16,278 bases of DNA from a virus (taxonomy: Duplodnaviria > Heunggongvirae > Uroviricota > Caudoviricetes), in the IMG/VR virus record IMGVR_UViG_2563366911_000006. One strand, written 5' to 3'. This document shows positions 1 to 16,278 of this stretch, one piece after another. Both the position numbers and the translations under genes were made by a program. Numbering within the stretch: position 1 is the stretch's first letter; every line of letters begins with the position of its first letter. A model generated the notes under the pieces. That model was not told where the DNA came from and made no database searches. It saw nothing but the letters and a program-made list of their open reading frames with translations.

Positions 1-1254
1 ATGCCAAAACTCACAGATATGCAGATCCGCGCATGGATAAAAGCCGGAGAACATTTCGAAGGTCGTGCTGATGGTGGTGGGCTATATCTCCGGTATAGAG
101 AGGTGGATAGATCCCCTACCTGGCGGTTTCGATATAAACTAGCAGGAAAATCTCGTGCCATGCTTATTGGTTCATATTCTGAATTATCGTTATCAAAAGC
201 GAGGGAACGGGCAAAAGAACTTTCCGCACGAGTTGCTTTGGGATATGACGTAGCCGCAGAAAAACAGCAGCGTAAAGCCGAAGCACTGGCAAAAATAGAA
301 GCCGAAAAAAACGCGCTGCACGTTTCTGAACTTGCCGCCGAATACTTTGAACGGCAAATACTTCCCCGGTGGAAACACCCAGATATTCTCCGTAGGCGCA
401 TTGATAAAGACATAAATCCAGCCATAGGCCACATGAAGGTTGAAGATGTAAAACCACGCCATATTGATGCTATGCTTAAAAGTATTGTTGATAGAGGCGC
501 TCCAACAATTGCTACTGACGTTCTTCGCTGGACACGTCGCATATTTGACTACGGTATTAAACGCCTTGCTTTGGAAGTTAACCCCTGCTCAGCTTTCGAA
601 GTTTCAGATGCTGGTGGGAAAGAATTATCTCGTGATCGTTGGCTGAACCGGGACGAATTAATCCAATTTTTTCAGGCAATGCGTAAAGCCAAAGGATTCA
701 GCCGCCAGAACGAATTAACCTTTAAGTTGCTCCTGGCGTTGTGTGTCAGAAAAATGGAATTATGCGCCGCCAAGTGGGATGAATTCGACTTAGATGGCGC
801 GATTTGGCATCTACCAGAACAACGAACTAAAAATGGTGATGCTATCGACATACCATTGCCACCAGCGGCTATAGAATGGTTGCGAGAATTGCATACATTT
901 TCATGCAATAGCGCATGGGTATTACCTGCCAGAAAAATGCAGCACAGAATGATCCCTCACATCCAGGAAAGCACCCTTCCTGTTGCATTGGCAAAAGTCA
1001 GAGCAGAAATGCCGAACGTCCCCAACTTTACAATTCACGACTTCCGGCGAACAGCACGAACACATTTAGCAGCATTGGGAGTTGACCCGATCGTTGCTGA
1101 ACGATGCCTTAACCACCGCATAAAAGGCGTAGAGGGCATTTATAACCGCCATCAATATTTTGATGAGCGCAAAGCGGCACTAGCACAGTGGACTGATTTG
1201 CTGGTGAATTTAGAAAACATGATATGTTCTGACATCACGCAATCTAATAAATAA
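1..1254 (+). CDS. int: Tyrosine-type site-specific integrase, P4 family
   Basis: 417-aa ORF starting at base 1. N-terminal arm-binding-type region, then catalytic motifs: Arg in LCVRKMEL, HDFRRTARTH (H-x-x-R), and GIYNRHQY (His/Tyr nucleophile region). Recognised by family resemblance from memory, not by search. Confidence 0.93.
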   Translation: MPKLTDMQIRAWIKAGEHFEGRADGGGLYLRYREVDRSPTWRFRYKLAGKSRAMLIGSYSELSLSKARERAKELSARVALGYDVAAEKQQRKAEALAKIEAEKNALHVSELAAEYFERQILPRWKHPDILRRRIDKDINPAIGHMKVEDVKPRHIDAMLKSIVDRGAPTIATDVLRWTRRIFDYGIKRLALEVNPCSAFEVSDAGGKELSRDRWLNRDELIQFFQAMRKAKGFSRQNELTFKLLLALCVRKMELCAAKWDEFDLDGAIWHLPEQRTKNGDAIDIPLPPAAIEWLRELHTFSCNSAWVLPARKMQHRMIPHIQESTLPVALAKVRAEMPNVPNFTIHDFRRTARTHLAALGVDPIVAERCLNHRIKGVEGIYNRHQYFDERKAALAQWTDLLVNLENMICSDITQSNK

Positions 1255-2093: not shown

Positions 2094-2205
2094 TGAAATA
2101 AGAAAAGTCACAGTGTTTTTTCTAAAACTCACACACACATCATTTCATTTGTTATTTAATGCCCCTATTACAAATCACAAACCAACAACAAAGGTAATGG
2201 GGCAT

Positions 2206-2424
2206 ATGAAAAACCAACCAATACTTCAAACCGCAATCCCTGCAACTGGCTATATCCGCCGCTATCGCCTGGCTGAATTGCTGGGTACCAGCTTATCAAC
2301 GCTCGATCGTTGGGTACGTAGCGGGAAGATGCCTAAGCCCATCAAACTGGGTGAGAAAAGCACTGCATTCGATGCGGTAGAGATTAATCGCTGGCTGGAA
2401 GAACGCCGAAACACATCAGCCTGA
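2206..2424 (+). CDS. alpA: AlpA-family (excisionase-like, MerR-type HTH) prophage regulatory protein
   Basis: 72-aa product with HTH core LAELLGTSLSTLDRWVRSGKMPKPIKLGEKSTAFDAVEINRWL, typical of AlpA/Xis-like proteins. Start is ambiguous (ATG 2197 or 2206; the ORF track starts at 2113 and is probably too long). Confidence 0.85.
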   Translation: MKNQPILQTAIPATGYIRRYRLAELLGTSLSTLDRWVRSGKMPKPIKLGEKSTAFDAVEINRWLEERRNTSA

Positions 2425-2503: not shown

Positions 2504-3304
2504 ATGAAATTTCCAAAAACGCCCGTACAGGGGCAGGGCTTCGTTCGGCCTGAAAACCAGAATCTGCAAAATTTTGGTGAAATTATCCCGGTTATTTCCG
2601 GCGTTATTGGCGGGCGTGAAACCAATATTGTTAGTGCCAGAGCGTTGCATAAGGCGTTAGGTGTAGGGCGCGTTTTCCGTTCGTGGATCAAGGGGCGCAT
2701 TGAAGAATACGGCTTCACGGAAGGCGTGGATTATGAGGTTGTTGAATATTTGAGCCGACCCGATCCGGTGAGCGCAAAATCTCGCCAGCAAACAGCTCTT
2801 GAGTACATCATCACCGTGAACATGGCAAAAGAACTGGCGATGGTCGAACACACCGAACAGGGCCGTGCCGTTCGTCAGTACTTCATCAAATGCGAGGAGG
2901 AGCTACACAAGGTAGCGCCAGTGCGTTCCGCAGCGTTACGCCGGGAACTGAAAGCCCGTATCACCGTTGCCAGCTACTTTAAGCCGATGTGTGCCGCGCT
3001 GGAGGCGTACCGGGCTGAACTGGGTAAAAACACGTTCCAGCACCACTACACCACGGAAGCCAATATGCTGGCGCGTATCGTGCTGGGTGGCATGACTGCA
3101 AAACAGTGGGCACAGGCGAACGGCATTACAGGCGAACCACGCGACCACATGAGCACGTTGCAGCTTGAGCACCTTTCTTACCTTGAGCAGAGCAATATCA
3201 CGCTGATTGAGTTAGGCCTGGACTACCACCAGCGGAAAGCTGAATTAATTCGTCTTTCGCAGCGTTGGTTAGCCCGTCGCATGGAGGAAAACAGCCATGT
3301 GTAA
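2504..3304 (+). CDS. Phage antirepressor-like protein (AntA/Rha-type N-terminal domain)
   Basis: 266 aa, AGGAG Shine-Dalgarno 7 nt upstream. N-terminal segment ARALHKALGVGRVFRSWIKGRIEEYGFTEGVDYEV resembles the AntA/Rha antirepressor DNA-binding domain. C-terminal half not assigned. Confidence 0.75.
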   Translation: MKFPKTPVQGQGFVRPENQNLQNFGEIIPVISGVIGGRETNIVSARALHKALGVGRVFRSWIKGRIEEYGFTEGVDYEVVEYLSRPDPVSAKSRQQTALEYIITVNMAKELAMVEHTEQGRAVRQYFIKCEEELHKVAPVRSAALRRELKARITVASYFKPMCAALEAYRAELGKNTFQHHYTTEANMLARIVLGGMTAKQWAQANGITGEPRDHMSTLQLEHLSYLEQSNITLIELGLDYHQRKAELIRLSQRWLARRMEENSHV

Positions 3305-3976
3305 CGCTCTGACCGTTACAAAAAGAGAAAGCGCCCCGTTGCCGGAGCGCCTTTGTGAACGAATAGCCTACTGCGCCATATTGCTTACTGTCTACGAGGC
3401 AGATTATAGCGTTGTGGTCGCACAGAGTGAAGGCGCTGATCACCGTTACTACAGCACGCCAGAAATGCAGAATATTTTGCTGCAAAATGTCGTTGGTCAC
3501 GCTGTCCGGAAAGCAAAAAATTTTGCTGGTGGCGCGACTGATGCGATTTTGTCAGGTCGCAAGGTGATGATCAATCTGATGTCTAATTTCGTTCTGGATA
3601 AAACAAAGGCGACCGCAGAGGGCCACCAGTGGGAAAGCTACACACTTGAACACATCGCCAACAATGCCAGATTTGCGGCTGGTGGGCAATGTGATCAGTG
3701 TGCTGGCTTGCTGGTGGGCTATTCCTGCTCTTTAACATTGCCATGCCGCGATGTTTTCCAGGTATGCGACCCCATTTTTGTGCGCCTGTACTCTTTAAGG
3801 AATTTCTCAAGGATAAACGCACAGGGCGCGAATCTGTCTGACTCATATTCGTACGCTATCTTTCTGCGCTGTCTTTTCCGTGCCGGTGATGGTGTATTGG
3901 TCGATTCTTTGTTGGTCATTCTGTGTACCTGTAAAGCAATGCGCCGGAGTTCCTCACACCACGGCGATGATAGTTA

Positions 3977-4282
3977 TTATTCTGATTCTTTGGCCTTGCG
4001 GCGCTGGAGTTCTTCACGTGCGACGGTGACGAGCTGCCCGATCTCCTCGACAGCTTTGACTCCGATTTTTTCCACCTGCGCCAGTGCATTGAGCGAAGAA
4101 ACCAGGGGATTTTCTCCGCTTCCTTCTGCCTGGCGGCGGGCGATCTCACCACGCATGGCGGTTACTATGAATCCGGCGTTGCTTTCGCCGTCCAGTTTTA
4201 CGGATTCCATGCCTTCAAAAGCATCATGTGGGATACGAATTGAAATCTGTTTTGATTTGTCGTTGATAGTGTTTTTTGCCAT
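3977..4282 (-). CDS. Putative ribbon-helix-helix DNA-binding regulator
   Basis: 101 aa from ATG at 4282 (minus strand) with AGGAGA Shine-Dalgarno. N-terminus KQISIRIPHDAFEGMESVKL...FIVTAMRGEIARRQ fits a beta-strand/helix/helix RHH fold. Divergent from the rightward operon. The opposite-strand frame here reads as Ser/Arg-rich junk. Confidence 0.7.
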   Translation of the reverse strand: MAKNTINDKSKQISIRIPHDAFEGMESVKLDGESNAGFIVTAMRGEIARRQAEGSGENPLVSSLNALAQVEKIGVKAVEEIGQLVTVAREELQRRKAKESE

Positions 4283-4469
4283 GTGCATTCTCCTAAACAA
4301 AAGATGTGATTCAGTATACACAAAAAAGAATCACAAAAAATACTTGACCTGTGATTCAGTTAAATTTAATTTAAATCACACCTCAGTAAGAGGATATAAA
4401 CGACAACGCCCCGAACTGTTTGCGGCAGTAGCGGGGCGTCTAACCAAACCGTTAAATGAGGTAACGATT
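4283..4469. promoter_or_regulatory. Divergent control region with operator-like repeats and a leader hairpin
   Basis: Two 11-bp direct repeats TGTGATTCAGT (4305-4315, 4350-4360), each with an inverted partner GAATCACA/AATCACA (4328-4335, 4374-4380). Candidate rightward promoter TTGACC (4345-4350) with a TAATTT-type -10. Candidate leftward -10 TATACT (minus strand, 4313-4318). GC hairpin ACGCCCCG-N18-CGGGGCGT (4406-4439) in the operon leader. Confidence 0.5.
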
Positions 4470-4835
4470 ATGGCTGGGGCACAGCATACCCAAACTCACC
4501 CTAAATTTATATACACCTTCCTTGCGGTGCACCGTGATTGCATGGCTGACGGTAAAAACACTGTTCATGTAGCCGCCGATACGCTGGTTGATGCCTGCGA
4601 GATGCTCAATGACATGGGCTATATCTCGGCAACATGGAAAGGGCGCGAAGAAAACACGTTGTTTATTCAGAAATGCGAAAACAATTTTATCTGGCGTTTT
4701 ATCGCCCTGAGTACGGCACAACCGCGCGTGATTCACATCGAGGCCACCAGCGAACAGGAAGCACGCCAGCAATCTCCTGATGGCTGCGTGATGGTATTCG
4801 CTGCCCGTATTCGCCAGGAGGTGGAGCATGTGTAA
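4470..4835 (+). CDS. Hypothetical satellite-operon protein (possibly Icd-like)
   Basis: 121 aa, GAGGT Shine-Dalgarno 8 nt upstream of ATG 4470. It is the only protein-like part of the 512-aa ORF-track frame. Family assignment is from memory and uncertain. Confidence 0.65.
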   Translation: MAGAQHTQTHPKFIYTFLAVHRDCMADGKNTVHVAADTLVDACEMLNDMGYISATWKGREENTLFIQKCENNFIWRFIALSTAQPRVIHIEATSEQEARQQSPDGCVMVFAARIRQEVEHV

Positions 4836-5833: not shown

Positions 5834-6124
5834 ATGAAAAGGAAAAATTCTGGCTTTACTGCCAGCGGTCTCTCTCGGCCTGAAATCAGACACGGAGATA
5901 TTTACCGCGACACCAGACGTGGGGGACGAGTGGTTATTCGTCACGTTACGCCAGGCAATATCACCTACCGCCGTGAGGCTTACGAATATGACTGCGTAAT
6001 GCCGCGCCGTCAGTTTGAGCGTGATTTTATTCTGGTGGAAAACAAACAACAGGCAGTGGCGAGACGTGCAGCCACGAATATTAAAAAAATCCGGGCAATG
6101 TTGGTTGCGGGAGGTAAGAAGTGA
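5834..6124 (+). CDS. Hypothetical small basic protein
   Basis: 96 aa, starts 4 nt after the previous stop. Its stop overlaps the GTG start of the primase (GTGA). Confidence 0.6.
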   Translation: MKRKNSGFTASGLSRPEIRHGDIYRDTRRGGRVVIRHVTPGNITYRREAYEYDCVMPRRQFERDFILVENKQQAVARRAATNIKKIRAMLVAGGKK

Positions 6125-7926
6125 AAAACGCACCGAATTTAAAATATCAGCCGAAGGATAAATTCACCGAGGTAATCATTTTTGCCGGGACGGATGCTTA
6201 CGCCCATGCTCAACACTGGATTGAAAGCGAAGGACGAAAACACGGCGATAACGTGCCTCCTGTTTACCTGGGGCCAAAGCAACTGGCAGACCTGGCGAAT
6301 ATCCGCATTGTCGACGATGAACGCCGCTTTGCGCGTGTCTATCTCGCGGGGGAGATAGAGCCAATCCAGATCAATGCTATTGCTGAAAAGCTGGCGCTGG
6401 CTGGTGTACAGGACGCGAAATTATACAAAGGTATCACCGACCGGGAGCCGGAAAACTGGCGCGACTACCTGCAACGGATCCGCGAACAGGCAGAGAGTGG
6501 GGAAGTTTCAGCGATGAAATTAGCCACAAAAAATATTGACCTATCTAGGCCAGCACTAAATCAGATGGGAGCCAGCCAGAGAGGGGAAGTGTTACTTGAA
6601 TATTATGGAAGAGCACTGGCTATAAATGATGATTCTGATGTAGTTCACCATTACAACGGAATTGTCTGGGTGCCTGTATCTGATAAGGAACTCCAGCGGT
6701 CTATGGCGAAGATTTTTATTGATGCTGGAATCAGTTATTCGCAAAACGCCATTAAATTTGCCGTAGACACAATGAAATTGAGCCTGCCTGTTATGGGCGG
6801 GGCAGACAGGAATCTTATTGGATTCAGTAACGGGGTATTTGATACCCGGACGGGAAATTTTCGGGAGCATAACAAAAATGACTGGTTGTTAAATGCCAGT
6901 GAATTACCGTTCAGCCCACCAGCAGAGGGGGAAACGCTGGCAACACATGCGCCGAATTTCTGGAAGTGGCTGCGTCGTTCGGTGGCAGATAATGATCGTA
7001 AAGCTGATCGCGTACTGGCGGCATTATTCATGGTGCTGGCGAACCGGTACGACTGGCAGTTATTCCTTGAGGTAACAGGCCCAGGCGGAAGCGGTAAAAG
7101 TGTGATGGCTGAGATTTGTACCATGCTGGCGGGTAAGGCAAACACAGTATCGGCAAGCATGAAGGCTCTGGAAGACGCAAGGGAACGCGCGTTAGTAGTT
7201 GGCTTTTCGCTGATTATCATGCCGGATATGACTCGCTACGCTGGCGATGGTGCAGGAATTAAGGCAATTACTGGCGGCGACAAGGTGGCAATTGATCCGA
7301 AACATAAAGCCCCCTACTCCACACGTATTCCGGCAGTAGTGCTTGCGGTAAACAATAACGCCATGTCATTCAGTGACCGAAGCGGGGGGATCTCGCGTCG
7401 TAGGGTGATATTTAATTTCTCTGAGGTCGTACCGGAGAACGAACGCGATCCCATGCTGGCGGAAAAGATAGAAGGCGAACTGGCGGTAGTGATTCGCCAT
7501 TTGCTAACACGATTTACCGACCAGGACGAAGCTAAAAGACTACTTTATGAGCAGCAAAAATCAGAAGAAGCGCTGTTGATAAAGCGCGAAGGTGATTCAC
7601 TGGTGGACTTTTGCGGCTATCTGATGTCGTTGGTTAAATGTGAAGGAATGATGGTGGGCAATGCGGAAATAGTGCCATTTAGCCCGAGGCGATACCTGTA
7701 TCATGCTTATTTAGCCTATATGTCAGCGCATGGCCTGGGAAAACCAGTATCACTGACACGCTTTGGTACTGATATGCCAGGAGCTATGGCGGAATACGGA
7801 AAGGAGTATAAGCGGGCTAAATGCACTAAAGGCCCGGATAAAGGGCGAGTGATAACAAATGTTCTGTTAGATGATGATGCTGATGGCTGGTTGCCAGCAG
7901 CTACAGGGATTAACGACAGAACATAA
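6121..7926 (+). CDS. Replication primase/helicase, P4 alpha-type C-terminal family (P-loop NTPase)
   Basis: 601 aa, GTG start with GGAGG Shine-Dalgarno. Walker A motif TGPGGSGKS near aa 316 (about nt 7066-7092). Overall resemblance to the P4-family primase C-terminal/helicase region. Followed directly by iterons. Confidence 0.88.
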   Translation: MKNAPNLKYQPKDKFTEVIIFAGTDAYAHAQHWIESEGRKHGDNVPPVYLGPKQLADLANIRIVDDERRFARVYLAGEIEPIQINAIAEKLALAGVQDAKLYKGITDREPENWRDYLQRIREQAESGEVSAMKLATKNIDLSRPALNQMGASQRGEVLLEYYGRALAINDDSDVVHHYNGIVWVPVSDKELQRSMAKIFIDAGISYSQNAIKFAVDTMKLSLPVMGGADRNLIGFSNGVFDTRTGNFREHNKNDWLLNASELPFSPPAEGETLATHAPNFWKWLRRSVADNDRKADRVLAALFMVLANRYDWQLFLEVTGPGGSGKSVMAEICTMLAGKANTVSASMKALEDARERALVVGFSLIIMPDMTRYAGDGAGIKAITGGDKVAIDPKHKAPYSTRIPAVVLAVNNNAMSFSDRSGGISRRRVIFNFSEVVPENERDPMLAEKIEGELAVVIRHLLTRFTDQDEAKRLLYEQQKSEEALLIKREGDSLVDFCGYLMSLVKCEGMMVGNAEIVPFSPRRYLYHAYLAYMSAHGLGKPVSLTRFGTDMPGAMAEYGKEYKRAKCTKGPDKGRVITNVLLDDDADGWLPAATGINDRT

Positions 7927-7953
7927 TACGAAATTTATAAGCTGAAACGTAAA

Positions 7954-8289
7954 GGTAGACGGTTGGTAGACAGATTCACTTAACCCTCTACCAACCATCT
8001 ACCAATTAATATTTTGAATTATAAAGATATTTTCAATGTAGTAGAGAGGTAGACAGTTATTTCTATATTCCTAAACCACGGGGGGTATATAAAAAACAGA
8101 TAGTTAAGGGGGCATTTTTTAAATTTCTCTTTTAACTGTCTACACTGTCTACCATTTAGTAAAAATCATTAATTATCAATGTATTAATGCGGTAGACCGT
8201 TGGTAGACAGTTTGCAGATTGTTTTTTTGTTATGTGTTAATAACATTAAATAAATCAATCAATTATATCGGTAGACAGTTGGTAGACAG
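7954..8289. repeat. Iteron array, putative satellite replication origin
   Basis: Repeated GGTAGAC(N)GTTGGTAGACAG units in both orientations (7954-7973, inverted 7987-8002, 8041-8056, inverted 8136-8153, 8191-8210, 8270-8289) separated by AT-rich DNA. No ORF of 60 aa or more. Immediately 3' of the primase/helicase gene. Confidence 0.7.
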
Positions 8290-8301
8290 TTGTAACGATG
8301 G

Positions 8302-8310
8302 GGCAAAGCA
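8302..8310. repeat. IS10 target-site duplication, left copy (GGCAAAGCA)
   Basis: 9-bp sequence identical to 9640-9648, directly flanking the IS10 ends. Confidence 0.9.
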
Positions 8311-8356
8311 CTGATGAATCCCCTAATGATTTTGGTAAAAATCATTAAGTTAAGGT

Positions 8357-8425
8357 GGATACACATCTTGTCATATGATCAAATGGTTTCGCGAAAAATC
8401 AATAATCAGACAACAAGATGTGCGA
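8357..8425 (-). ncRNA. IS10 RNA-OUT antisense RNA (position inferred)
   Basis: Placed by offset from the IS10 outside end using textbook IS10 organisation. Imperfect inverted repeat CATCTTGTC (8364-8372) / GACAACAAGATG (8409-8420) fits the RNA-OUT stem overlapping the transposase start. Confidence 0.45.
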
Positions 8426-9626
8426 ACTCGATATTTTACACGACTCTCTTTACCAATTCTGCCCCGAATTACACTTAAAACGACTCAACAGCTTAACGTT
8501 GGCTTGCCACGCATTACTTGACTGTAAAACTCTCACTCTTACCGAACTTGGCCGTAACCTGCCAACCAAAGCGAGAACAAAACATAACATCAAACGAATC
8601 GACCGATTGTTAGGTAATCGTCACCTCCACAAAGAGCGACTCGCTGTATACCGTTGGCATGCTAGCTTTATCTGTTCGGGCAATACGATGCCCATTGTAC
8701 TTGTTGACTGGTCTGATATTCGTGAGCAAAAACGACTTATGGTATTGCGAGCTTCAGTCGCACTACACGGTCGTTCTGTTACTCTTTATGAGAAAGCGTT
8801 CCCGCTTTCAGAGCAATGTTCAAAGAAAGCTCATGACCAATTTCTAGCCGACCTTGCGAGCATTCTACCGAGTAACACCACACCGCTCATTGTCAGTGAT
8901 GCTGGCTTTAAAGTGCCATGGTATAAATCCGTTGAGAAGCTGGGTTGGTACTGGTTAAGTCGAGTAAGAGGAAAAGTACAATATGCAGACCTAGGAGCGG
9001 AAAACTGGAAACCTATCAGCAACTTACATGATATGTCATCTAGTCACTCAAAGACTTTAGGCTATAAGAGGCTGACTAAAAGCAATCCAATCTCATGCCA
9101 AATTCTATTGTATAAATCTCGCTCTAAAGGCCGAAAAAATCAGCGCTCGACACGGACTCATTGTCACCACCCGTCACCTAAAATCTACTCAGCGTCGGCA
9201 AAGGAGCCATGGATTCTAGCAACTAACTTACCTGTTGAAATTCGAACACCCAAACAACTTGTTAATATCTATTCGAAGCGAATGCAGATTGAAGAAACCT
9301 TCCGAGACTTGAAAAGTCCTGCCTACGGACTAGGCCTACGCCATAGCCGAACGAGCAGCTCAGAGCGTTTTGATATCATGCTGCTAATCGCCCTGATGCT
9401 TCAACTAACATGTTGGCTTGCGGGCGTTCATGCTCAGAAACAAGGTTGGGACAAGCACTTCCAGGCTAACACAGTCAGAAATCGAAACGTACTCTCAACA
9501 GTTCGCTTAGGCATGGAAGTTTTGCGGCATTCTGGCTACACAATAACAAGGGAAGACTCACTCGTGGCTGCAACCCTGCTTACTCAAAATCTATTCACAC
9601 ATGGTTACGTTTTGGGGAAATTATGA
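8418..9626 (+). CDS. IS10 transposase
   Basis: 402-aa ORF MCELDILHDSLYQFCPELHLKRLNSLTLACHALLDCKTLTLTELGRNLPTKARTKHNIKRIDRLLGN... recognised as the IS10/Tn10 transposase. Full length, intact frame. Confidence 0.95.
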   Translation: MCELDILHDSLYQFCPELHLKRLNSLTLACHALLDCKTLTLTELGRNLPTKARTKHNIKRIDRLLGNRHLHKERLAVYRWHASFICSGNTMPIVLVDWSDIREQKRLMVLRASVALHGRSVTLYEKAFPLSEQCSKKAHDQFLADLASILPSNTTPLIVSDAGFKVPWYKSVEKLGWYWLSRVRGKVQYADLGAENWKPISNLHDMSSSHSKTLGYKRLTKSNPISCQILLYKSRSKGRKNQRSTRTHCHHPSPKIYSASAKEPWILATNLPVEIRTPKQLVNIYSKRMQIEETFRDLKSPAYGLGLRHSRTSSSERFDIMLLIALMLQLTCWLAGVHAQKQGWDKHFQANTVRNRNVLSTVRLGMEVLRHSGYTITREDSLVAATLLTQNLFTHGYVLGKL

Positions 9627-9639
9627 GGGGATCTCTCAG

Positions 9640-9648
9640 GGCAAAGCA
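9640..9648. repeat. IS10 target-site duplication, right copy (GGCAAAGCA)
   Basis: Identical to 8302-8310. Its last base is the A of the ATG of the next gene. Confidence 0.9.
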
Positions 9649-10178
9649 TGACTAAGCTGACCATTAACAGAAAACCAAAAGGTATTTACGGCACGCCGCA
9701 GAAAACGACGCAGGCGGCACAGGAGCAGGATAAAACCACATCGGCGCATAAAGTGATGCCCGGTAACCAGAAAGCGCAGCAGAAGCCTACAGGGGCGACA
9801 CCGTGGCGGCATATGACCAAACGCCAGCGCAAAAACCGCAGGCGCGTTAACCGCCTCACTGAGTTGTGGCCTGACTTATTCAGCCGGGAAGCACTGAAGC
9901 CGCTTAAGGTGGGGATATTCGACGACCTGATGCAGGATCTCGCCGCCAGGGGGCTGGCATTCGGGCCAGGGGCATTGCGTGCGACGCTGGCATCTTATGC
10001 GCAGTGTCCGCGCTATTACCGCGCCTTAATGGCTGGTGGGGTACGCTACGACCTGAAAGGCCAGCCGTGCGGCGAGGTGACACCACAGGAACAACAGGAC
10101 GCAGAAACGCGGCTGGTGGCGCTGAATGAGAAGCGCAAACGCCAGTGCCGGGCAGCAAAGGAGACAATAGGCGCATGA
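9648..10178 (+). CDS. ProQ/FinO-domain protein (RNA chaperone-like)
   Basis: 176 aa, GC-rich. Segment PLKVGIFDDLMQDL...LRATLASYAQCPRYYRALMAGGVRYDLKGQPCGEVTPQEQ closely parallels the conserved ProQ/FinO core (PLKIGIF..DL...R.DL.G.PCGE). IS10 lies immediately upstream. Confidence 0.72.
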   Translation: MTKLTINRKPKGIYGTPQKTTQAAQEQDKTTSAHKVMPGNQKAQQKPTGATPWRHMTKRQRKNRRRVNRLTELWPDLFSREALKPLKVGIFDDLMQDLAARGLAFGPGALRATLASYAQCPRYYRALMAGGVRYDLKGQPCGEVTPQEQQDAETRLVALNEKRKRQCRAAKETIGA

Positions 10179-10462
10179 TTCACGACAGCAAAGCGGAAGC
10201 ACTGGAAGCGCGTGGTCTGTACCGGAGAGCGGCGGCGCGGTGGGCTGAGGTCATCATGCTGGCGAATGATGACAAGGCACGGGAACAGGCGGCAAAACGT
10301 CGCGCGGAATGTATCCACAAGGCAGCACGCCCACCAGCAAGGCAGGATAATTTCGGGGAGATGCGCGAAACCATCAGCCGGGCACATGCCGGGATGGGAT
10401 TACATCAGCCCAATGGTGAGGCATTCAGGAAATACCAAAAAAAGAACAATTGTAGTCAGTAA
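10175..10462 (+). CDS. PerC-family-like small transcriptional regulator
   Basis: 95 aa from ATG 10175, overlapping the upstream stop (ATGA). N-terminal AEALEARGLYRRAAARWAEV recalls the PerC family. Assignment from memory, moderate certainty. Confidence 0.6.
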   Translation: MIHDSKAEALEARGLYRRAAARWAEVIMLANDDKAREQAAKRRAECIHKAARPPARQDNFGEMRETISRAHAGMGLHQPNGEAFRKYQKKNNCSQ

Positions 10463-10596
10463 CAGAGGATGGGATTCTCTTGGTTTTTTGTTGATGCTTT
10501 CTGAGGAAATCTACTACGTTGCTGAGCAGATGAATATTCAATTGCATCTGGGTTCCTGATAAGATTAATCTGAATATTTTCATTTGGAATAGGGAT

Positions 10597-11739
10597 ATGA
10601 ATAAAACTTTAATTGCAACATTAGTCGGTATAGTAATGTTAACCGGATGTGGGCCAGAAGAGTTAACTCCAGAACAGAAACAGGAAGTAGCTGCTCTTAA
10701 AGCTGAACTGTCGCAAACGGAAGGTGAAATATCAGCAGCTAAGGAAGTTGACCAGCAGTTTTCTGGTGGGTTGATAAAAAATCTGACAACAGCAAGACTG
10801 GAAATATTAGGAACTAATAAAGCGCTTTTGGAACAGCGTATTAATGCTATTGAATCAGGTGCCAAAATTGATGTTGTTGTATCTGGAGTAAAACCTGATC
10901 CTGAGCTTGCGGCTTCAATTAAAACTGAAATTGACAGCTTAGATGCAAAAATCAACGAAGCCAAAGCTGATGCTCGTCAGTATAGTGGTGGTCTGATAAA
11001 GGTACTAAAATTATCTACTGTTGCCACTGAAGAGCAGACCATGGCAATGTTGCAGCAAAAGTACCTCACAGCCAAGTATGGCCTCGCTGAAGTTAAGCTG
11101 GCATCAGTACAAGCTAATGACGCAAAAAACAGTACTGAAACGGAAGTAACAGCCAAAAATTCCCAAGAGCAACTTCCTTTACTCCCGCCAGCGGATGGTC
11201 CGTTTGGCTTAGAAGCCGGTCTTACACAGAAAAACATCGAAGATATGATCGGTGCTAAGCTCAAGCCACTACCAGACAGTGTGAATCTGTATACTTCTGA
11301 TAAATTACCGAAGCAAAACGCAGATTTTGAAATGTATGGTTTGCTGATCTCCCCGAAAGCTGGTTTATGTCAAATACGGGCTTTAGGAAAAAATATTGAT
11401 ACTGATAGCTATGGATTGGCTCTTAAATCCAAGTTTGAAGAATTGAGTAATTCTTTAAGTTCTCTGTATGGAAAGGCTGATACTACAGACTTTTTGCTGG
11501 CTGGTTCAATTTGGAAAGATCCTCAGGACTGGATGAGGGGGCTAAACAAAAAAGAACGCTTCTTATCTGCCACATGGAAGGGAACAAAAGAAATACCATT
11601 AAAAAACAATATTGATACTATATCTATTGAGGCCAGAGCGAACAATTCCACTCAGGGATATGTCTATCTGCAGTACTCATTTACAAATGACGAAATTTGT
11701 CAGGCAGAAATTGAAGGGGCGAAAAAAAGTTCCCTTTAA
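10597..11739 (+). CDS. Lipoprotein with internal repeats, function unknown
   Basis: 380 aa. Signal peptide with lipobox LTGC (Cys18). Two copies of a Q(F/Y)SGGLIK motif about 70 aa apart in a coiled-coil-like N-terminal half. AT-rich. Followed by a strong terminator. Confidence 0.85.
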   Translation: MNKTLIATLVGIVMLTGCGPEELTPEQKQEVAALKAELSQTEGEISAAKEVDQQFSGGLIKNLTTARLEILGTNKALLEQRINAIESGAKIDVVVSGVKPDPELAASIKTEIDSLDAKINEAKADARQYSGGLIKVLKLSTVATEEQTMAMLQQKYLTAKYGLAEVKLASVQANDAKNSTETEVTAKNSQEQLPLLPPADGPFGLEAGLTQKNIEDMIGAKLKPLPDSVNLYTSDKLPKQNADFEMYGLLISPKAGLCQIRALGKNIDTDSYGLALKSKFEELSNSLSSLYGKADTTDFLLAGSIWKDPQDWMRGLNKKERFLSATWKGTKEIPLKNNIDTISIEARANNSTQGYVYLQYSFTNDEICQAEIEGAKKSSL

Positions 11740-11751
11740 ACAATCCGTGCA

Positions 11752-11778
11752 AAGCCCCTTAGTAAGGGGCTTTTATAT
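11752..11778 (+). terminator. Rho-independent terminator
   Basis: Perfect 9-bp stem AAGCCCCTT / AAGGGGCTT with 3-nt loop, followed by TTATATATT. Confidence 0.7.
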
Positions 11779-11803
11779 ATTAATGTTCAACGTGGGGGAT
11801 TAG

Positions 11804-12127
11804 ATGAAAGATAATCTAGCAAAACTAATTGAAAATACTTTAAAAGATATTCTATTAGCTAATGCTGCTCTAACATTCATTTTTGCAATACCAATGGCTA
11901 TTATCAGTAGGCATGGGATGGGCATCACAATCTGGTTTATAACTGTGCTCATTGCACCTGCTCTGTGTGCAGTAGGTGCATGGCTTGTATCTCGAACATC
12001 CGGCCATGCTGAGGAGTTCTTTCATCGTCGGTGGGCTAAGCGAATTTATGTTTTTTATACTCTTGCGGCTGCCGAGTTTTTGCTTGTGTACTCAATCGCG
12101 CAAATAATGAAAAATCTGATGAAATAA
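11804..12127 (+). CDS. Small integral membrane protein (about 3 TM helices)
   Basis: 107 aa, GGGGGA Shine-Dalgarno. Three hydrophobic stretches of about 20 aa (LANAALTFIFAIPMAIIS, ITIWFITVLIAPALCAVGAWLV, IYVFYTLAAAEFLLVYSIAQIM). AT-rich. Confidence 0.7.
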   Translation: MKDNLAKLIENTLKDILLANAALTFIFAIPMAIISRHGMGITIWFITVLIAPALCAVGAWLVSRTSGHAEEFFHRRWAKRIYVFYTLAAAEFLLVYSIAQIMKNLMK

Positions 12128-12395
12128 TTAACAAGTTATTATCATGGAGCTTGTGGCTGTTAACCTGCAGTGAGGCGACAATCGTGTATTTATAAAAACT
12201 TCCCCTTTTCACTCCCCGCTGCTTCTTCTGCTATTGCCTTTATGTTTGCATCTGCCATACCTTTGCAGAAAAATCAGAGCATTCAGTGCCGAAGGTTGGT
12301 TTATTGATGCTTTTCGTTTCATTTATTGCAATTGTCTCTGGTATCATTTCAATTTGTGCAATAATTGCAATTATTGTCATTCAGAAGGGATCATC

Positions 12396-12563
12396 ATGAA
12401 AAATCACGGAGTAAAGCCAGTTTTACTTTCCCGGAGGCAGATCGAAGCCCTGCAACGCATCCAGGACGAAGAGCGTCAGAAATCTGTGCTTGGTGTGGCA
12501 CCGTCGATTCATGTTATCGCTCGGCAACTGATGGATAAGGCACTTAAAGAGGTGAGACTGTGA
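12396..12563 (+). CDS. Small hypothetical protein (possible DNA-binding regulator or antitoxin-like)
   Basis: 55 aa from ATG 12396 with AAGGGA Shine-Dalgarno 5 nt upstream. Upstream region carries ATTGCAAT-type palindromic repeats. The ORF-track start (12234) is probably too far upstream. Confidence 0.55.
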   Translation: MKNHGVKPVLLSRRQIEALQRIQDEERQKSVLGVAPSIHVIARQLMDKALKEVRL

Positions 12564-12832
12564 AATTAAATATCAGAGTGGATAAACGCCAGCTATGGCA
12601 GAAAAAAGAGAACAGCGAGGCATTCAGGGCGTTGCTGGTGGAAAATCTTCAGCATCGGTTCAGTGGAGAGTTGCCTGATGCTCTAGGGAAGAAACTGGAA
12701 TCCCTGACGGTGGAAATTGGCGATTATGGCTTTGTTGATGTTGAAAGCACGACTGCCAACACAGAAATCGTAAAACAGGTCGTCAATGATGTAATGAAAA
12801 CCACGCTTAGCCAGCCATCCTGGCGCAACTGA
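12560..12832 (+). CDS. Small acidic hypothetical protein
   Basis: 90 aa. GTG start overlapping the upstream stop (GTGA), suggesting a coupled two-gene unit. Followed by a hairpin terminator. Confidence 0.55.
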   Translation: MKLNIRVDKRQLWQKKENSEAFRALLVENLQHRFSGELPDALGKKLESLTVEIGDYGFVDVESTTANTEIVKQVVNDVMKTTLSQPSWRN

Positions 12833-12838
12833 ATCAGT

Positions 12839-12862
12839 AAGGGGCGGTTATTGCCCCTTTCC
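12839..12862 (+). terminator. Putative rho-independent terminator
   Basis: Stem AAGGGGC / GCCCCTT with 7-nt loop followed by TTCCTCC. U-tract is weak. Confidence 0.5.
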
Positions 12863-12931
12863 TCCATACCCACAACGCATTCCCTTTCCGCATGAAATTA
12901 TTTTTTATCGTATATGCATGAGGTGAGCTAC

Positions 12932-13459
12932 ATGTTGATGAGTAAAGCCGAATACGCCAAATACAAAGGCGTAAGCCGCCAGACAGTTTACGACTGGCTC
13001 GAGAAAGGCGAAGTGGTCATGTCCGGTAAAAAAATTGATGTGGAGGCGACAGAGCAGCGGAACAGCCCACCGGCACAAGGGAAAGACACCGTTTCTGAAA
13101 TGTGGCCAGAAAGAACGCTGGAAATGACGTGGGGCGAGTTCTGGAAAGCAGTTAAGGCCAGAGACGGTAAAATTCCTTCGCCAGTAACGGACGATGACAT
13201 ACAGCAGCGTGTGCTGTATGCAGCCGGGGAATTAGGCTGGGAAGTGCACTTTCTTGATGATGGTGCTATCTGCCTTGAGGATGATGAAGGGCAGCATTAC
13301 TTTGAAAAATACAATTTGCGAGGTAATGCCAGGCTGGCAATTCGTATGCTGCGTTGCGAACTCTGCTATGTTGCAGGTGATTATCCCGATGAACTGGAAT
13401 CATGGAGTGAAGCCGGGCTAAACGCCCTGGCTGAATGGGAAAAATCAGACCATCAATGA
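12932..13459 (+). CDS. N-terminal HTH protein (possible small-terminase-like or packaging-redirection-like DNA-binding protein)
   Basis: 175 aa from ATG 12932 with GAGGTGA Shine-Dalgarno. N-terminus MSKAEYAKYKGVSRQTVYDWLEKGEV is an HTH of the type found at the N-terminus of small terminase / Nu1-like proteins. Acidic C-terminal domain. A repeat array lies immediately downstream. Confidence 0.65.
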   Translation: MLMSKAEYAKYKGVSRQTVYDWLEKGEVVMSGKKIDVEATEQRNSPPAQGKDTVSEMWPERTLEMTWGEFWKAVKARDGKIPSPVTDDDIQQRVLYAAGELGWEVHFLDDGAICLEDDEGQHYFEKYNLRGNARLAIRMLRCELCYVAGDYPDELESWSEAGLNALAEWEKSDHQ

Positions 13460-13464
13460 CATCA

Positions 13465-13733
13465 AAAAGTGTCAAGTTAAGCAGCTTGCCAGGTTGACAC
13501 TTTACACTCTGAACGCGAAAAAGTGTCAACCTCGCTAGAAGCCGCGCCATTACTGGCCTTGTACCATATTCACCACGTCAAAAAACCGAAAAAATCGCGA
13601 AAAGTGTCAAGTTGCCATGCTTAGAAATGCCAGGGGTGGTTAAGTTTTGTTAAGGTTTTTCGCGAAAAAGTGTCAAGTGTGTCAACCTGCGATGTTAAGG
13701 TTTGTTAAGGTCTTAAGCTGGAAAGTGTCAACC
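13465..13733. repeat. Array of AAAGTGTCAA-type repeats, putative protein-binding site cluster
   Basis: Seven copies of (CGCG)AAAAGTGTCAA(G/C): direct at 13465-13476, 13515-13532, 13597-13611, 13661-13677, 13676-13688 (variant), 13720-13733, and inverted at 13492-13503. Interleaved GTTAAGG(T) repeats (about 13640-13660, 13693-13712, 13741-13756). No ORF of 60 aa or more on the plus strand. Confidence 0.75.
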
Positions 13734-13763
13734 AGCCACCTAAGATTTCCTAAGGTGTAAATC

Positions 13764-13937
13764 ATGACCATCACCGAAGCCGATTTGCTGGAGATGATCC
13801 GCAGCATTGCCGGAATCAAACAACCTGCAAGAAAAATTAACAGGTGTTCAGCGCCTGTTTCCGTTGTGCTGCAACAGGAACGCCACCAGCAGGATGATGT
13901 GAGGCCGTATCAGTGGAAGAAACCGGACAGGCCGCGA
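13764..13937 (+). CDS. Small ORF (57 aa), possibly a gene remnant
   Basis: ATG 13764 with AAGGTG Shine-Dalgarno 7 nt upstream. First about 20 aa are protein-like (MTITEADLLEMIRSIAGIKQ), the remainder low-complexity. Below the ORF-track size cutoff. Confidence 0.3.
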
Positions 13938-13982
13938 CGGTGAGCGAGGCGTTACAGTAAGCCGATATTCAAGCCAAACATT

Positions 13983-14005
13983 AAGCCTACGGGCAAGGCT
14001 TTTTT
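13983..14005 (+). terminator. Putative rho-independent terminator
   Basis: Stem AAGCCT / AGGCTT with 7-nt loop followed by TTTTG. Confidence 0.5.
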
Positions 14006-14289
14006 GTAGCTGGTGGGCATGATGCCGATATAATAGCCCCTCCTACCAATTATCTGTGATTCCTATCTAACCTTCATCACGGACAACTAGAAAATCATTG
14101 TGGATAAATAAGGATCATAACGAATAAAGCATTTCATAGCAGAGCAACATACTGACTATTCAATACCCTGTTCAAACGTACAGGTATCAGTGTTATCAAC
14201 GTTTTAATAACCTTTCATGTTCTTTCCTACCACTTAAACTAGAGTAAAATGTGAAAAATTTATACCCATAAGTTTCATATGGAGGAACT

Positions 14290-16278
14290 GTGTTCCTAAT
14301 ATCTGACCTTAGCGACTTGCGTGCACTTTCGGAATCCGCAGAGCTAGAGTTCAAGCTAGCTCAAGGGAAAGACGGACAAGGTAAATTACCTGATGATTTC
14401 TGGCCAACCTATAGTGCTATGGCAAACTGCCGTGGTGGGTATGTGGTTTTAGGTATTAGAGAGAAAAAAGGGGAATTTTCCGTTGCGGGTATCTCAGATA
14501 TAAATACCGTTAAAAAGCAGCTTTTCGACCTCGTGAGCAACAAGAAAAAAGTTAACGTTAATCTTCTTACCAATAACTCTGTCCAAACAGTATCCTTACA
14601 GGGAAAGGATATTCTTGTCATTGAAATACCAATCGCACGACGAGAACAGAAACCTGTTTATTTGAATAATCAACCCATGTCAGAAACATGGTTTCGTATG
14701 CACGACGGTGATCATCGTTGTTCAGAAGAACAAGTTCGTCGCATGATGGCCGAACAGGTTGAAGAAAGCCGCGACAACCGTATCGTACAAAACTTCGACA
14801 TGAACGATATTAACCTAGAAAGCTTGTTGGCTTACAGAAATCTACTATCTGCTTCAAACCCGACACATCCAGCTCTCGAACTAGATAACTTTGCTTTCCT
14901 ACGAAGTATTGGGGGATATAGAAAAGACCGGCAAACAGGTTTGGAAGGCATGACCTTAGCTGGCATTCTCATGTTTGGAACATGGGAAGCGATACAAGAT
15001 GTAGCCCCAAATTATTTTGTGGATTACCAAGAACGCCCTGAAGCAAGAACTGAAAGAAGATGGGTAGATAGACTATGTCCCGATGGGACTTGGTCAGGTA
15101 ACGTGTTTGACTTTTACAGACGAACCTATCGAAAACTAATTGCTGACTTAAAAGTCCCTTTTGAGCTTAAAGAAGGTATCCGACAGGACGATACTCAGAT
15201 ACACACAGCATTGCGTGAAGCGCTGGTAAATACCTTAGTTCATGCCGATTATACTGGACGAATCTCCATCATGGTTGTGAAACGACCAGATCTATTTGGC
15301 TTCCGTAATCCAGGTTTGATGCGCGTGCCACCAGAACAAGCAATCAAAGGATATGAAAGCGATTGTCGAAACCGACTGATGCATCAAATGTTTTTAATTA
15401 TTGGTGCTGGTGAACGATCAGGCTCAGGGATCCCTAAAATATTTAGTGGCTGGAAATGGGCTAACTGGCGTATGCCAAGGCTATATGAAAAAACAGAACC
15501 AGAACAAACACTTTTGGAGCTATCTATTGGCAACCTCGTATCAGAAGAAATTGCCAATCTTCTCCATACAAAATTTGGCGACAAAGTAGACCATCTCAGT
15601 GAGCTTGAGCGCAGTATTGTTATAACTGCAGCCGTAGAAAAGTGGATTGACCATGAACGGGCTTGTCAACTAACTAGCCTTCACTCTCGTGAGGTAACTT
15701 TAGCCTTACCCCGCCTTGTAAGCGGCGGATTCTTAGTCCCTCATGGTGAGAAGAGGAATAAATCATATACATTACCGGGGCAGGATCTTCCATCTCCAGA
15801 GGAAGTTTTTGGTGTAAATCCGTTATCAACAGACAACTCATTCGCAAACGAAGCTCAAATCATCACGGATAGCGATAATTTGATCACGGATAACGAAGAA
15901 TTGATCACGGATAACGAAAAAGAACGAGATGCTTTAGGTCGTTTTATAACCGAGAAACTACCTTTTCCTTATGTGGATAACCTTGAGTGCCTTTCACCAA
16001 CCTTAAGGCAACGGTTAGAAGACATATCTGCATTAGCCAGAGAAAAGAAACGACTTTCCAACGAAACCATGGACGAAATCATACTTAAGCTTTGCTCAGG
16101 CCATTATATGCCGCTTAGTGTTATTGCAAAGTTAATGGCCCGAACACCACAGAACCTACGAGAAAAACAGCTCGTTCCATTAGTAAGATCCGGAAAAATA
16201 AGACTGGCATTTCCTCATGCGAGAAGACACAAACGACAGGGATATATTTCTTGTGAACAAGTACAAGTTAACAACTAA
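14290..16278 (+). CDS. Schlafen/AlbA_2-domain protein with GHKL-like ATPase-type region (COG2865-like) and extended C-terminus
   Basis: 662 aa, GTG start with GGAGG upstream. N-terminal SESAELEFK signature; LAGILMFG segment; LREALVNTLVHADY...FRNPG...ERSGSGIPKIF matching the HATPase_c_4-like core of COG2865 proteins; C-terminal HTH-like segments. Family call from memory of motifs. Ends exactly at the window end. Confidence 0.8.
   Translation: MFLISDLSDLRALSESAELEFKLAQGKDGQGKLPDDFWPTYSAMANCRGGYVVLGIREKKGEFSVAGISDINTVKKQLFDLVSNKKKVNVNLLTNNSVQTVSLQGKDILVIEIPIARREQKPVYLNNQPMSETWFRMHDGDHRCSEEQVRRMMAEQVEESRDNRIVQNFDMNDINLESLLAYRNLLSASNPTHPALELDNFAFLRSIGGYRKDRQTGLEGMTLAGILMFGTWEAIQDVAPNYFVDYQERPEARTERRWVDRLCPDGTWSGNVFDFYRRTYRKLIADLKVPFELKEGIRQDDTQIHTALREALVNTLVHADYTGRISIMVVKRPDLFGFRNPGLMRVPPEQAIKGYESDCRNRLMHQMFLIIGAGERSGSGIPKIFSGWKWANWRMPRLYEKTEPEQTLLELSIGNLVSEEIANLLHTKFGDKVDHLSELERSIVITAAVEKWIDHERACQLTSLHSREVTLALPRLVSGGFLVPHGEKRNKSYTLPGQDLPSPEEVFGVNPLSTDNSFANEAQIITDSDNLITDNEELITDNEKERDALGRFITEKLPFPYVDNLECLSPTLRQRLEDISALAREKKRLSNETMDEIILKLCSGHYMPLSVIAKLMARTPQNLREKQLVPLVRSGKIRLAFPHARRHKRQGYISCEQVQVNN

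Follow-up and report, generated by a model that had tools for sequence, protein, structure and literature searches.

A FinO-domain and PerC-family gene pair between the replication module and cargo of a PICI-type satellite

The window, that is, the whole stretch of 16,278 nucleotides that was analysed, carries two coupled plus-strand genes where the replication module of a PICI-type phage satellite meets its variable cargo. One encodes a FinO/ProQ-domain protein and the other a small regulator of the PerC family. The identities of the two proteins, the PICI context and the position of the pair in the satellite backbone are held with high confidence. The complete reading is that the pair forms a regulatory module of the PICI backbone, would be expressed by read-through, combines an RNA chaperone with an H-NS anti-silencer and was uncoupled in this window by IS10; taken as a whole, we consider this statement somewhat probable. 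The molecular roles proposed within it for the FinO-like and PerC proteins are tentative and, taken separately, rather doubtful.

Both the pair with its names and the occurrence of PerC in PICIs were already on record. RefSeq names the two products 'ProQ/FINO family protein' and 'PerC family transcriptional regulator'. The correction concerns the reading of the locus: FinO-PerC is part of the satellite backbone and is located where replication module and cargo meet. A fixed backbone position of FinO in PICIs and capsid-forming PICIs (cf-PICIs), and its coupling to PerC, or to another small protein in the place of PerC, were not found in the literature. In the accessible literature, no functional study of a PICI FinO-domain protein was found either. 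The placement in the backbone gives a concrete experimental target, namely the role of a FinO-domain RNA-binding protein in a phage satellite.

The features of the window are the following (positions count from its first letter):

1..1254, plus strand: tyrosine integrase (profile match; related islands are located at tRNA-Thr (thrW) beside proBA)
2113..2424, plus strand: gene of an AlpA-family regulator (PF05930, E 1.8e-8), 3' of int and in the same orientation
5834..6124, plus strand: DUF4222 gene
6121..7926, plus strand: primase/replication protein with D5_N, DUF5906 and a P4-family primase C-terminal domain
7927..8310, no strand: island replication origin (GC 0.32) with two clusters of the iteron GGTAGACNG, one on each side of an AT-rich centre
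8302..8310: left 9-bp target duplication, GGCAAAGCA
8311..9639, plus strand: IS10 (ISVsa5-type, 1329 bp, termini read in the sequence), between the origin and the FinO-like gene
8356..8425, minus strand: RNA-OUT of IS10 (Rfam, 98.8 bits)
8418..9626, plus strand: IS10 transposase (IS4 family, DDE, E 1.5e-120)
9640..9648: right 9-bp target duplication, GGCAAAGCA, its last A being the A of the FinO ATG
9648..10178, plus strand: gene of the FinO/ProQ-domain protein (176 aa, ATG start)
10175..10462, plus strand: gene of the PerC-family small regulator (95 aa, ATG start)
10463..10489, plus strand: degenerate remnant of the operon-end terminator, CAGAGGATGGGATTCTCTTGGTTTTTT, at the position of the terminator in relatives
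10597..16278, plus strand: variable AT-rich accessory region (380-aa lipoprotein, small ORFs, Schlafen-AlbA_2/HATPase_c_4 protein)

By its genes, the window is a satellite of the PICI type; its site of integration is thrW. It starts with int, an AT-rich unknown gene, alpA and an AntA antirepressor gene. These are followed by a stretch with minus-strand genes and an Icd-like remnant, by several small plus-strand genes, and by DUF4222 and the primase. The DUF4222 gene was located 5' of the primase in every related locus reaching far enough upstream. Eight exact copies of the iteron GGTAGACNG were found, all within 7954-8289 (0.17 expected), and the origin also holds repeat and inverted-repeat families. 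Two iteron sets around an AT-rich core are the origin organisation of Gram-negative PICIs and cf-PICIs, with which the window also shares int, alpA and the primase (Fillol-Salom 2018, PMC6092414). A further likeness is the presence of accessory and defence genes at the far end. PICIs lack phage structural and lysis genes and measure about 10-20 kb. No such genes were found in the 16.3 kb of the window; the right end of the island and the att sites lie beyond it. In one relative (L001), about 17 kb separate int from the next integrase fragment. Near-identical islands in complete E. coli genomes (L001, L002) are integrated at tRNA-Thr next to proBA, and the characterised PICI EcCIMP1 has the same proA/thrW attachment region (PMC11773190). 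The difference from known PICIs is the FinO-domain gene, which was not found described as a part of the backbone in the literature on these islands.

The FinO-like protein matched the Pfam model ProQ/FINO (PF04352) over residues 64-166 with 82.6 bits (cut-off 27, E 2.4e-23). Its best PDB sequence match was the ProQ NTD (5nb9, 6.7e-12), followed by NMB1681 (3mw6), FinO (1dvo) and RocC (7rgu). In an AlphaFold (AF2) model built with 17 homologues, the FinO fold comprised residues 58-175, with a pLDDT of 88-96 across residues 61-170. Foldseek matched this model to RocC, NMB1681 and FinO (E ~1e-6) with a target-normalised TM of 0.61-0.85 (0.79-0.85 for RocC and NMB1681), and the superposed structures include RocC with a bound terminator hairpin. 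The fold is the same as that of ProQ (E. coli), RocC (Legionella) and NMB1681 (Neisseria). The RNA partner of RocC is RocR. Unlike ProQ, the protein of the window has no linker and no Tudor-like C-terminal domain; instead, it has an N-terminal tail of ~50 residues (1-50) predicted to be disordered. The N-terminal 62 residues are basic and Q/T-rich (14 K+R versus 2 D+E).

According to mutational studies, the ProQ residues K35, R58, Y70, R80 and D82 are important for RNA binding. In the alignment, these residues correspond to K87, R111, Y123, R133 and D135 of the FinO-like protein, and ProQ R62 is replaced by A115. K87 and R133 were invariant among the 17 FinO-like homologues, and Y123 and D135 were at least 90% conserved. 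The conserved RNA-contact residues, the FinO domain, the basic N-terminal extension and the location on a mobile element are shared with FinO of F-like plasmids and FopA of IncI pCol1B9. The protein differs from these in its low identity (~30-35% to plasmid FinO over the domain) and in its location in a chromosomal satellite, and no FinP- or Inc-like RNA was found in the window. The NCBIfam scores were 57.8 bits for FinO (NF010317, cut-off 136) and 54.3 bits for ProQ (NF003434, cut-off 127). Because both scores are below the cut-offs and the identity to plasmid FinO is low, the protein is, on these comparisons, a distinct subfamily and neither FinO proper nor ProQ proper. The gene is under purifying selection (median dN/dS 0.24).

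For the PerC-like gene, the ORF list gave a start at GTG 10145 (10145-10462). The start conserved in the family is ATG 10175 (MIHDSKAE...), and the N-terminus from this ATG was invariant in an alignment of 32 PerC homologues. The protein matched Pfam PerC (PF06069) almost completely (109.1 bits, cut-off 22.6, E 1.3e-31, model positions 1-89 of 90). It contains the N-terminal motif D..AE.LE.(K/R)GLYRRAA.RW, and D4, A7, E8, E11, G14, Y16, R17, R18, A19 and R22 were invariant in the 32 PerC sequences. A protein named 'PchABC family transcriptional regulator' (P0172) is 63% identical to it, and plasmid-borne PerC-family genes reach about 47-49% identity to its product. The AF2 model shows three confident helices (residues 5-50) and no HTH; it is TPR-like, a match that reflects a generic helical fold of only ~50 residues. 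Purifying selection was also observed for this gene (median dN/dS 0.28).

The preliminary description had recognised two overlapping genes within 9648-10462 and had assigned them to the FinO-domain and PerC-like families. Both the overlap (ATGA, 4 nt, comprising the FinO-like stop and the PerC-like start) and the assignments were confirmed, the latter by HMM searches in which both domains scored above the Pfam cut-offs. The ATGA junction, GCGCATGATTCA, recurs across relatives.

The GC content (GC3 in brackets) was 0.59 (0.66) for the FinO-like gene and 0.56 (0.57) for the PerC-like gene. The 384-bp origin region upstream has a GC content of 0.32, the lipoprotein gene downstream of 0.40 (0.32) and the whole window of 0.45. 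The GC excess of the pair over its AT-rich neighbours, as described before, was thus reproduced. Its interpretation as a sign of a separate origin found weak support. The GC contrast is no evidence of the pair being foreign, because the low-GC neighbours are the origin, an insertion sequence and accessory genes; the low GC around the pair says more about these flanks than about the pair. What speaks for a separate history is a mosaic of FinO and primase: no fewer than 13 loci combine a FinO protein with 89-97% identity to that of the window and an adjoining primase with only 43-56% identity. On this evidence, the FinO-PerC cassette recombines among satellite backbones, and such recombination may be the source of the differing composition of the pair.

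We checked the position of the pair in 77 IMG/VR loci with mapped marker proteins and its distribution in 5,426 complete E. coli genomes. The FinO gene was located 3' of the replication module in all 77 loci. Of the 68 loci with sufficient flank, 58 had a primase match upstream of it; an SSB gene was located directly upstream in 32 loci. The gap to a following PerC was ≤15 nt in 48 loci and larger in five; in three loci, PerC was located upstream of FinO. In the complete genome L007, the order was int-HTH-Icd-DUF4222-primase-SSB-FinO-PerC-island end. Most relatives have a strong intrinsic terminator, GGCCGGGATTTTTCCCGGCTTTTTT, directly 3' of the PerC stop, regardless of the downstream content. 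The remnant in the window folds no better than shuffled sequence (z 0.65).

Beyond this point, the content varied. GapS1 occupies the distal island end in one relative; another relative has different genes there, and the window has the Schlafen-AlbA_2 protein. The 380-aa lipoprotein gene was present in 17 of the 48 loci where PerC adjoins FinO, and the accessory content differed between loci sharing ≥94% identical FinO-PerC. Because a terminator follows PerC and the variable genes lie past it, the pair marks the end of the conserved backbone, and the AT-rich DNA beyond is the cargo. The preliminary description had called the pair itself island cargo. This label does not fit the fixed position after the replication module, the terminator 3' of the pair in most relatives and the variation of the AT-rich genes downstream.

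Nineteen of the 77 loci are capsid-forming PICIs, in which FinO is followed by an overlapping 82-aa phrog_1957 gene, a strong terminator and the capsid-to-terminase operon. The FinO gene is thus kept between SSB and the capsid operon. Another cf-PICI, the complete genome L009, has SSB-PerC and no FinO gene. PerC without FinO was also found in an island resembling EcCIMP1 in position and gene content (L008); its PerC has ~76% DNA identity to that of the window over a part of the gene only. The pairing of FinO and PerC is therefore not obligatory. The PerC/Pch genes of E. coli PICIs (EcCIMP1_025 and the EcCICFT073 and EcCIEDL933 homologues) resemble the gene of the window in encoding a Pfam PerC protein of ~90-95 aa, located 3' of the primase in an int-alpA-primase satellite. 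In contrast to EcCIMP1, the PerC gene of the window is translationally coupled to a preceding FinO-domain gene; ProQ/FinO has 0 occurrences in the EcCIMP1 paper (PMC11773190).

With a threshold of ≥80% DNA identity, the pair was present in 321 of the 5,426 genomes. A more sensitive DNA search gave 1,895 genomes (about a third) with a match to the pair or to a part of it, almost always on the chromosome. The scan of species-representative genomes gave one locus. In the phage database, FinO-like matches were 29-39% identical and PerC was almost absent; neither gene is typical of true phages. CP4-type pathogenicity islands carry FinO-like genes at 72-78% DNA identity near YagK/YfjJ ('inovirus Gp2') and AlpA-like genes; neither a primase nor PerC was found in their vicinity. 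The FinO-like protein is therefore not restricted to satellites. Neither protein of the pair matched the PADLOC defence-system models.

An alternative explanation is that the pair is accessory cargo which reprograms the host and has no role in the island life cycle. PerC would then act on virulence loci such as LEE, and the FinO-like protein would be a second global RNA chaperone. We regard this as unlikely, although published effects of PerC support it. PICI-encoded PerC homologues alter LEE1 in trans, and depending on the allele LEE1 was repressed, activated or unchanged: EcCIMP1_025 represses it, and some other PICI homologues activate it (PMC11773190; PMC6092414). EPEC PerC changes metabolism, fimbrial genes and sRNA levels (PMC5293775), and a survey from 2026 counted PerC and ProQ/FinO as accessory genes of Enterobacter PICIs (PMC13612085). 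The higher GC3 of the pair and its recombination independent of the primase point in the same direction. However, the pair has a constant place within the operon, ahead of the terminator that precedes the variable genes, and the FinO gene is retained in the cf-PICIs. Moreover, E. coli isolates of urine, blood, wastewater and seawater origin, taken irrespective of LEE status, commonly carry the pair, and the PICI PerCs of EDL933 and CFT073 left LEE1 unaffected according to PMC11773190, which cites Porter 2005 for this.

In the favoured reading, the pair closes the rightward early/replication operon of a satellite of the PICI type. The order is int, alpA, antA, small genes including DUF4222, primase, iteron origin, FinO-like gene, PerC-like gene, terminator and variable cargo. 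Since no plus-strand terminator was predicted between the primase and the FinO-like gene, read-through from the AlpA-controlled operon is probable. In intact islands, the pair would thus be transcribed from the alpA-primase operon upon induction by a helper phage. The FinO-like protein would recognise one RNA or a few, binding the terminator hairpin and U-tail at the 3' end, as FinO, FopA and RocC do. It could stabilise such an RNA or pair it with a target, and satellite, helper-phage and host RNAs are all conceivable ligands.

For PerC, we propose a role as an H-NS anti-silencer that would act by protein contacts, as Pch does. Pch activates transcription by displacing H-NS and relieving its silencing (PMC4764244). 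PchABC of EHEC and PerC of the EPEC EAF plasmid belong to the same Pfam family and are also located on mobile DNA. They differ from the gene of the window in being carried by lambdoid prophages or a plasmid operon (perABC), whereas the latter follows a satellite replication module. A second difference is that LEE1 activation is not established for the satellite alleles, one of which has the reverse effect (PMC11773190). Because the published PICI PerC homologues differ in their LEE1 effect, anti-silencing may not generalise to all of them (PMC11773190). In the window, PerC might open AT-rich DNA, for example the cargo just downstream, or LEE-type loci where these are present. An RNA chaperone and an anti-silencer would then be coupled at the junction of replication module and cargo, with host reprogramming as a side-effect or secondary role.

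A bolder version of this reading makes the FinO-domain protein a dedicated RNA chaperone of phage satellites, whose function would be conserved in the backbone of both PICIs and cf-PICIs. Via a satellite or helper RNA, it would time replication/packaging or hinder the helper, and its coupled partner (PerC, or the 82-aa phrog_1957 protein in cf-PICIs) would unlock H-NS-silenced AT-rich cargo. We think it rather unlikely that all of this applies. If it did, a dedicated chaperone would add an RNA-level layer to the conflict between satellite and helper, which was not found described for PICIs in the literature.

FinO-domain proteins bind 3' terminator hairpins, and those on mobile elements usually serve one antisense RNA each: FinO serves FinP/traJ, and FopA serves Inc/repZ (PMC9977716). 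We searched the window for such a partner. An Rfam scan of the whole window (E up to 1) had only the RNA-OUT of IS10 above threshold, and no C4/CI-type immunity RNA was found near the Icd-like region. A weaker Rfam match at 7949-8034 (30.5 bits, gathering score 52.7) is the iteron inverted repeat and was discarded. On the minus strand, a strong terminator (3353-3328) lies behind a promoter-like site (3431-3403), and the terminator hairpin was conserved in 50 of 87 loci. This hairpin was absent from many complete FinO-positive islands (L007, L047, L052, L056, L059 and L082). Because the candidate antisense sRNA/terminator (3330-3351, within the unit 3431-3328) does not co-occur with the FinO gene and belongs to a different module, it was rejected as a FinO-specific partner. 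The hairpin 3' of PerC was also rejected as a FinO ligand in the window, where it is degenerate. Binding of the FinO-like protein to the terminator behind its own PerC is an idea only, suggested by the strong terminator that relatives have there.

The search also bears on the possibility that the FinO-like protein controls replication or copy number of the satellite. Like FopA, it would aid an antisense RNA linked to the origin or primase, and PerC would be an unrelated, coupled passenger. The FinO gene is always directly 3' of primase, origin and SSB, promoter-like sites were predicted on both strands inside the origin, and FinO-domain proteins of mobile elements typically serve an antisense RNA encoded in cis (PMC9977716). 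Against this, the origin/primase region yielded no antisense RNA that was structured or conserved. Nearly identical FinO genes occur with primases of three types, which speaks against an antisense partner specific to the primase, and the CP4-type islands carry FinO-like genes with no primase. This explanation is therefore considered very unlikely.

The operon of the window itself is interrupted by IS10, an insertion that the preliminary description does not mention and that leaves 8 bp of native sequence before the FinO-like ATG. In the IS-free relative, GGCAAAGCA is present as a single copy, and the spacer of IS-free relatives is continuous (383 bp). Next to the insertion, the DNA is 100% identical to the IS-free relative over 961 bp, and both reading frames of the pair are intact. 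IS10 was absent from the FinO site of L001 and L002, and an IS10-FinO junction was found in none of the 5,426 complete E. coli genomes. Because the flank is identical to the IS-free relative and the junction is absent from the complete genomes, the insertion is, as far as these comparisons reach, recent and private to the window. It cuts the pair off from the upstream operon and probably lowers or deregulates its expression.

It is possible, if doubtful, that the pair is functionally dead in the strain of the window, that is, silenced by IS10 polarity and made of decaying DNA. IS10 separates the pair from all upstream island promoters, the Shine-Dalgarno context changed from the native GGGG to AGGG, and no promoter-like site was predicted on the plus strand in the last 240 bp of IS10. 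However, the intact frames and the identity to the IS-free relative mean that the insertion is recent, and the 9-bp duplication keeps the ATG and some of the ribosome-binding site. The pair could still be expressed, either by read-through from the transposase gene, which has the same orientation, or from an outward-facing promoter located at the inside end of IS10; such a promoter, pIII, was reportedly described by Simons et al. in 1983. The private IS10 insertion thus provides a natural test of the pair when uncoupled from the satellite operon.

Two features lie upstream of the FinO gene (9648–10178):
7927–8310, the island replication origin, with iterons in two clusters and an AT-rich core between them
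8311–9639, a complete IS10 (ISVsa5-type) with RNA-OUT, flanked by the 9-bp target duplication GGCAAAGCA (8302–8310 and 9640–9648)

The distance between the end of IS10 and the ATG of the FinO gene was 8 bp. The DNA flanking the element was 100% identical to an IS-free relative, and a search of 5,426 complete E. coli genomes did not find the IS10–FinO junction. In the origin (7927–8310), the iteron GGTAGACNG was present in eight exact copies (0.17 expected), accompanied by degenerate and inverted copies. A sub-threshold Rfam match to 'Plastid-psbM' (7949–8034) was rejected, as it merely reflected the inverted repeat of the iterons.

The partner of the FinO gene differed between loci. In the loci of capsid-forming PICIs (cf-PICIs; L044, L045–L056, L062 and L063), the FinO gene was coupled to another overlapping gene and not to PerC:
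L044 4932–5180, an 82-aa gene overlapping the FinO gene (protein MPVTFEEVQQHKK..., phrog_1957)

There, the FinO gene and the 82-aa gene were followed by a strong terminator and then the capsid operon. Lone FinO-like genes (72–78% DNA identity) were found in CP4-type pathogenicity islands of three E. coli chromosomes (L004, L005 and L006), with YagK/YfjJ ('inovirus Gp2'), H-NS-family and AlpA-like HTH genes as their neighbours; a frameshift was present in one of the three. These islands are a second, non-satellite niche of the FinO-like subfamily. Among four IMG/VR loci (L080–L082 and L085), three had the reverse order SSB-PerC-FinO, and one had two divergent FinO-like genes in tandem. The database protein P0110 (135 aa) contained a PerC Pfam domain, yet it matched roughly half of the FinO-like protein at 100% identity. 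It is probably a fusion across the ATGA junction, caused by a frameshift or deletion.

Several features on both strands overlap near antA:
3297–4835, + strand, open frame of 512 aa, with an Icd-like domain at the C-terminus as its sole profile match
3719–3919 and 3977–4321, − strand, two genes under the 512-aa frame, each with a strong PHROG match
3328–3431, − strand, promoter-like site (TTCACT-17-TATAAT) followed by a strong terminator, just beyond the antA stop
3627–3608, − strand, second terminator

The PHROG matches of the two − strand genes were phrog_21027 and phrog_6522 (YlcI/YnfO-like), and the AT skew of this stretch was negative. In relatives, RefSeq annotates both − strand genes, with the Icd-like sequence marked just as a partial pseudogene. 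The 512-aa frame is probably a shadow ORF joined to an icd remnant. The terminator within 3328–3431 had an 11-bp stem with seven G-C pairs and a T-run, and the unit could produce a small convergent or antisense RNA. Fifty loci, some cf-PICIs among them, had its hairpin GGCGCTCCGGCAACGGGGCGCT, and in 48 of these the hairpin sequence was identical; across loci, its presence did not track with the FinO gene.

Three further genes of the window:
1311–2093, a very AT-rich gene between the integrase and alpA (GC 0.31, GC3 0.25)
12914–13459, a 181-aa protein
14290–16278, continuing past the window end, the gene of a large Schlafen AlbA_2/HATPase_c_4 protein (phrog_12156, 'DNA helicase')

No family match was found for the AT-rich gene, and its counterpart was not the same in the two relatives L001 and L002. 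Its position looks like a second accessory slot. The N-terminus of the 181-aa protein was weakly similar to HTH_17 and to small-terminase subunits (phrog_57, E 2e-6); the protein may have a TerS-like or packaging-redirection function for the satellite. The distal slot, which looks like a defence hotspot of the satellite, was occupied by the Schlafen AlbA_2 protein here, by GapS1 in one relative and by different genes in another. In PADLOC, the Schlafen AlbA_2/HATPase_c_4 protein showed weak similarity to pAgo/SIR2-associated proteins.
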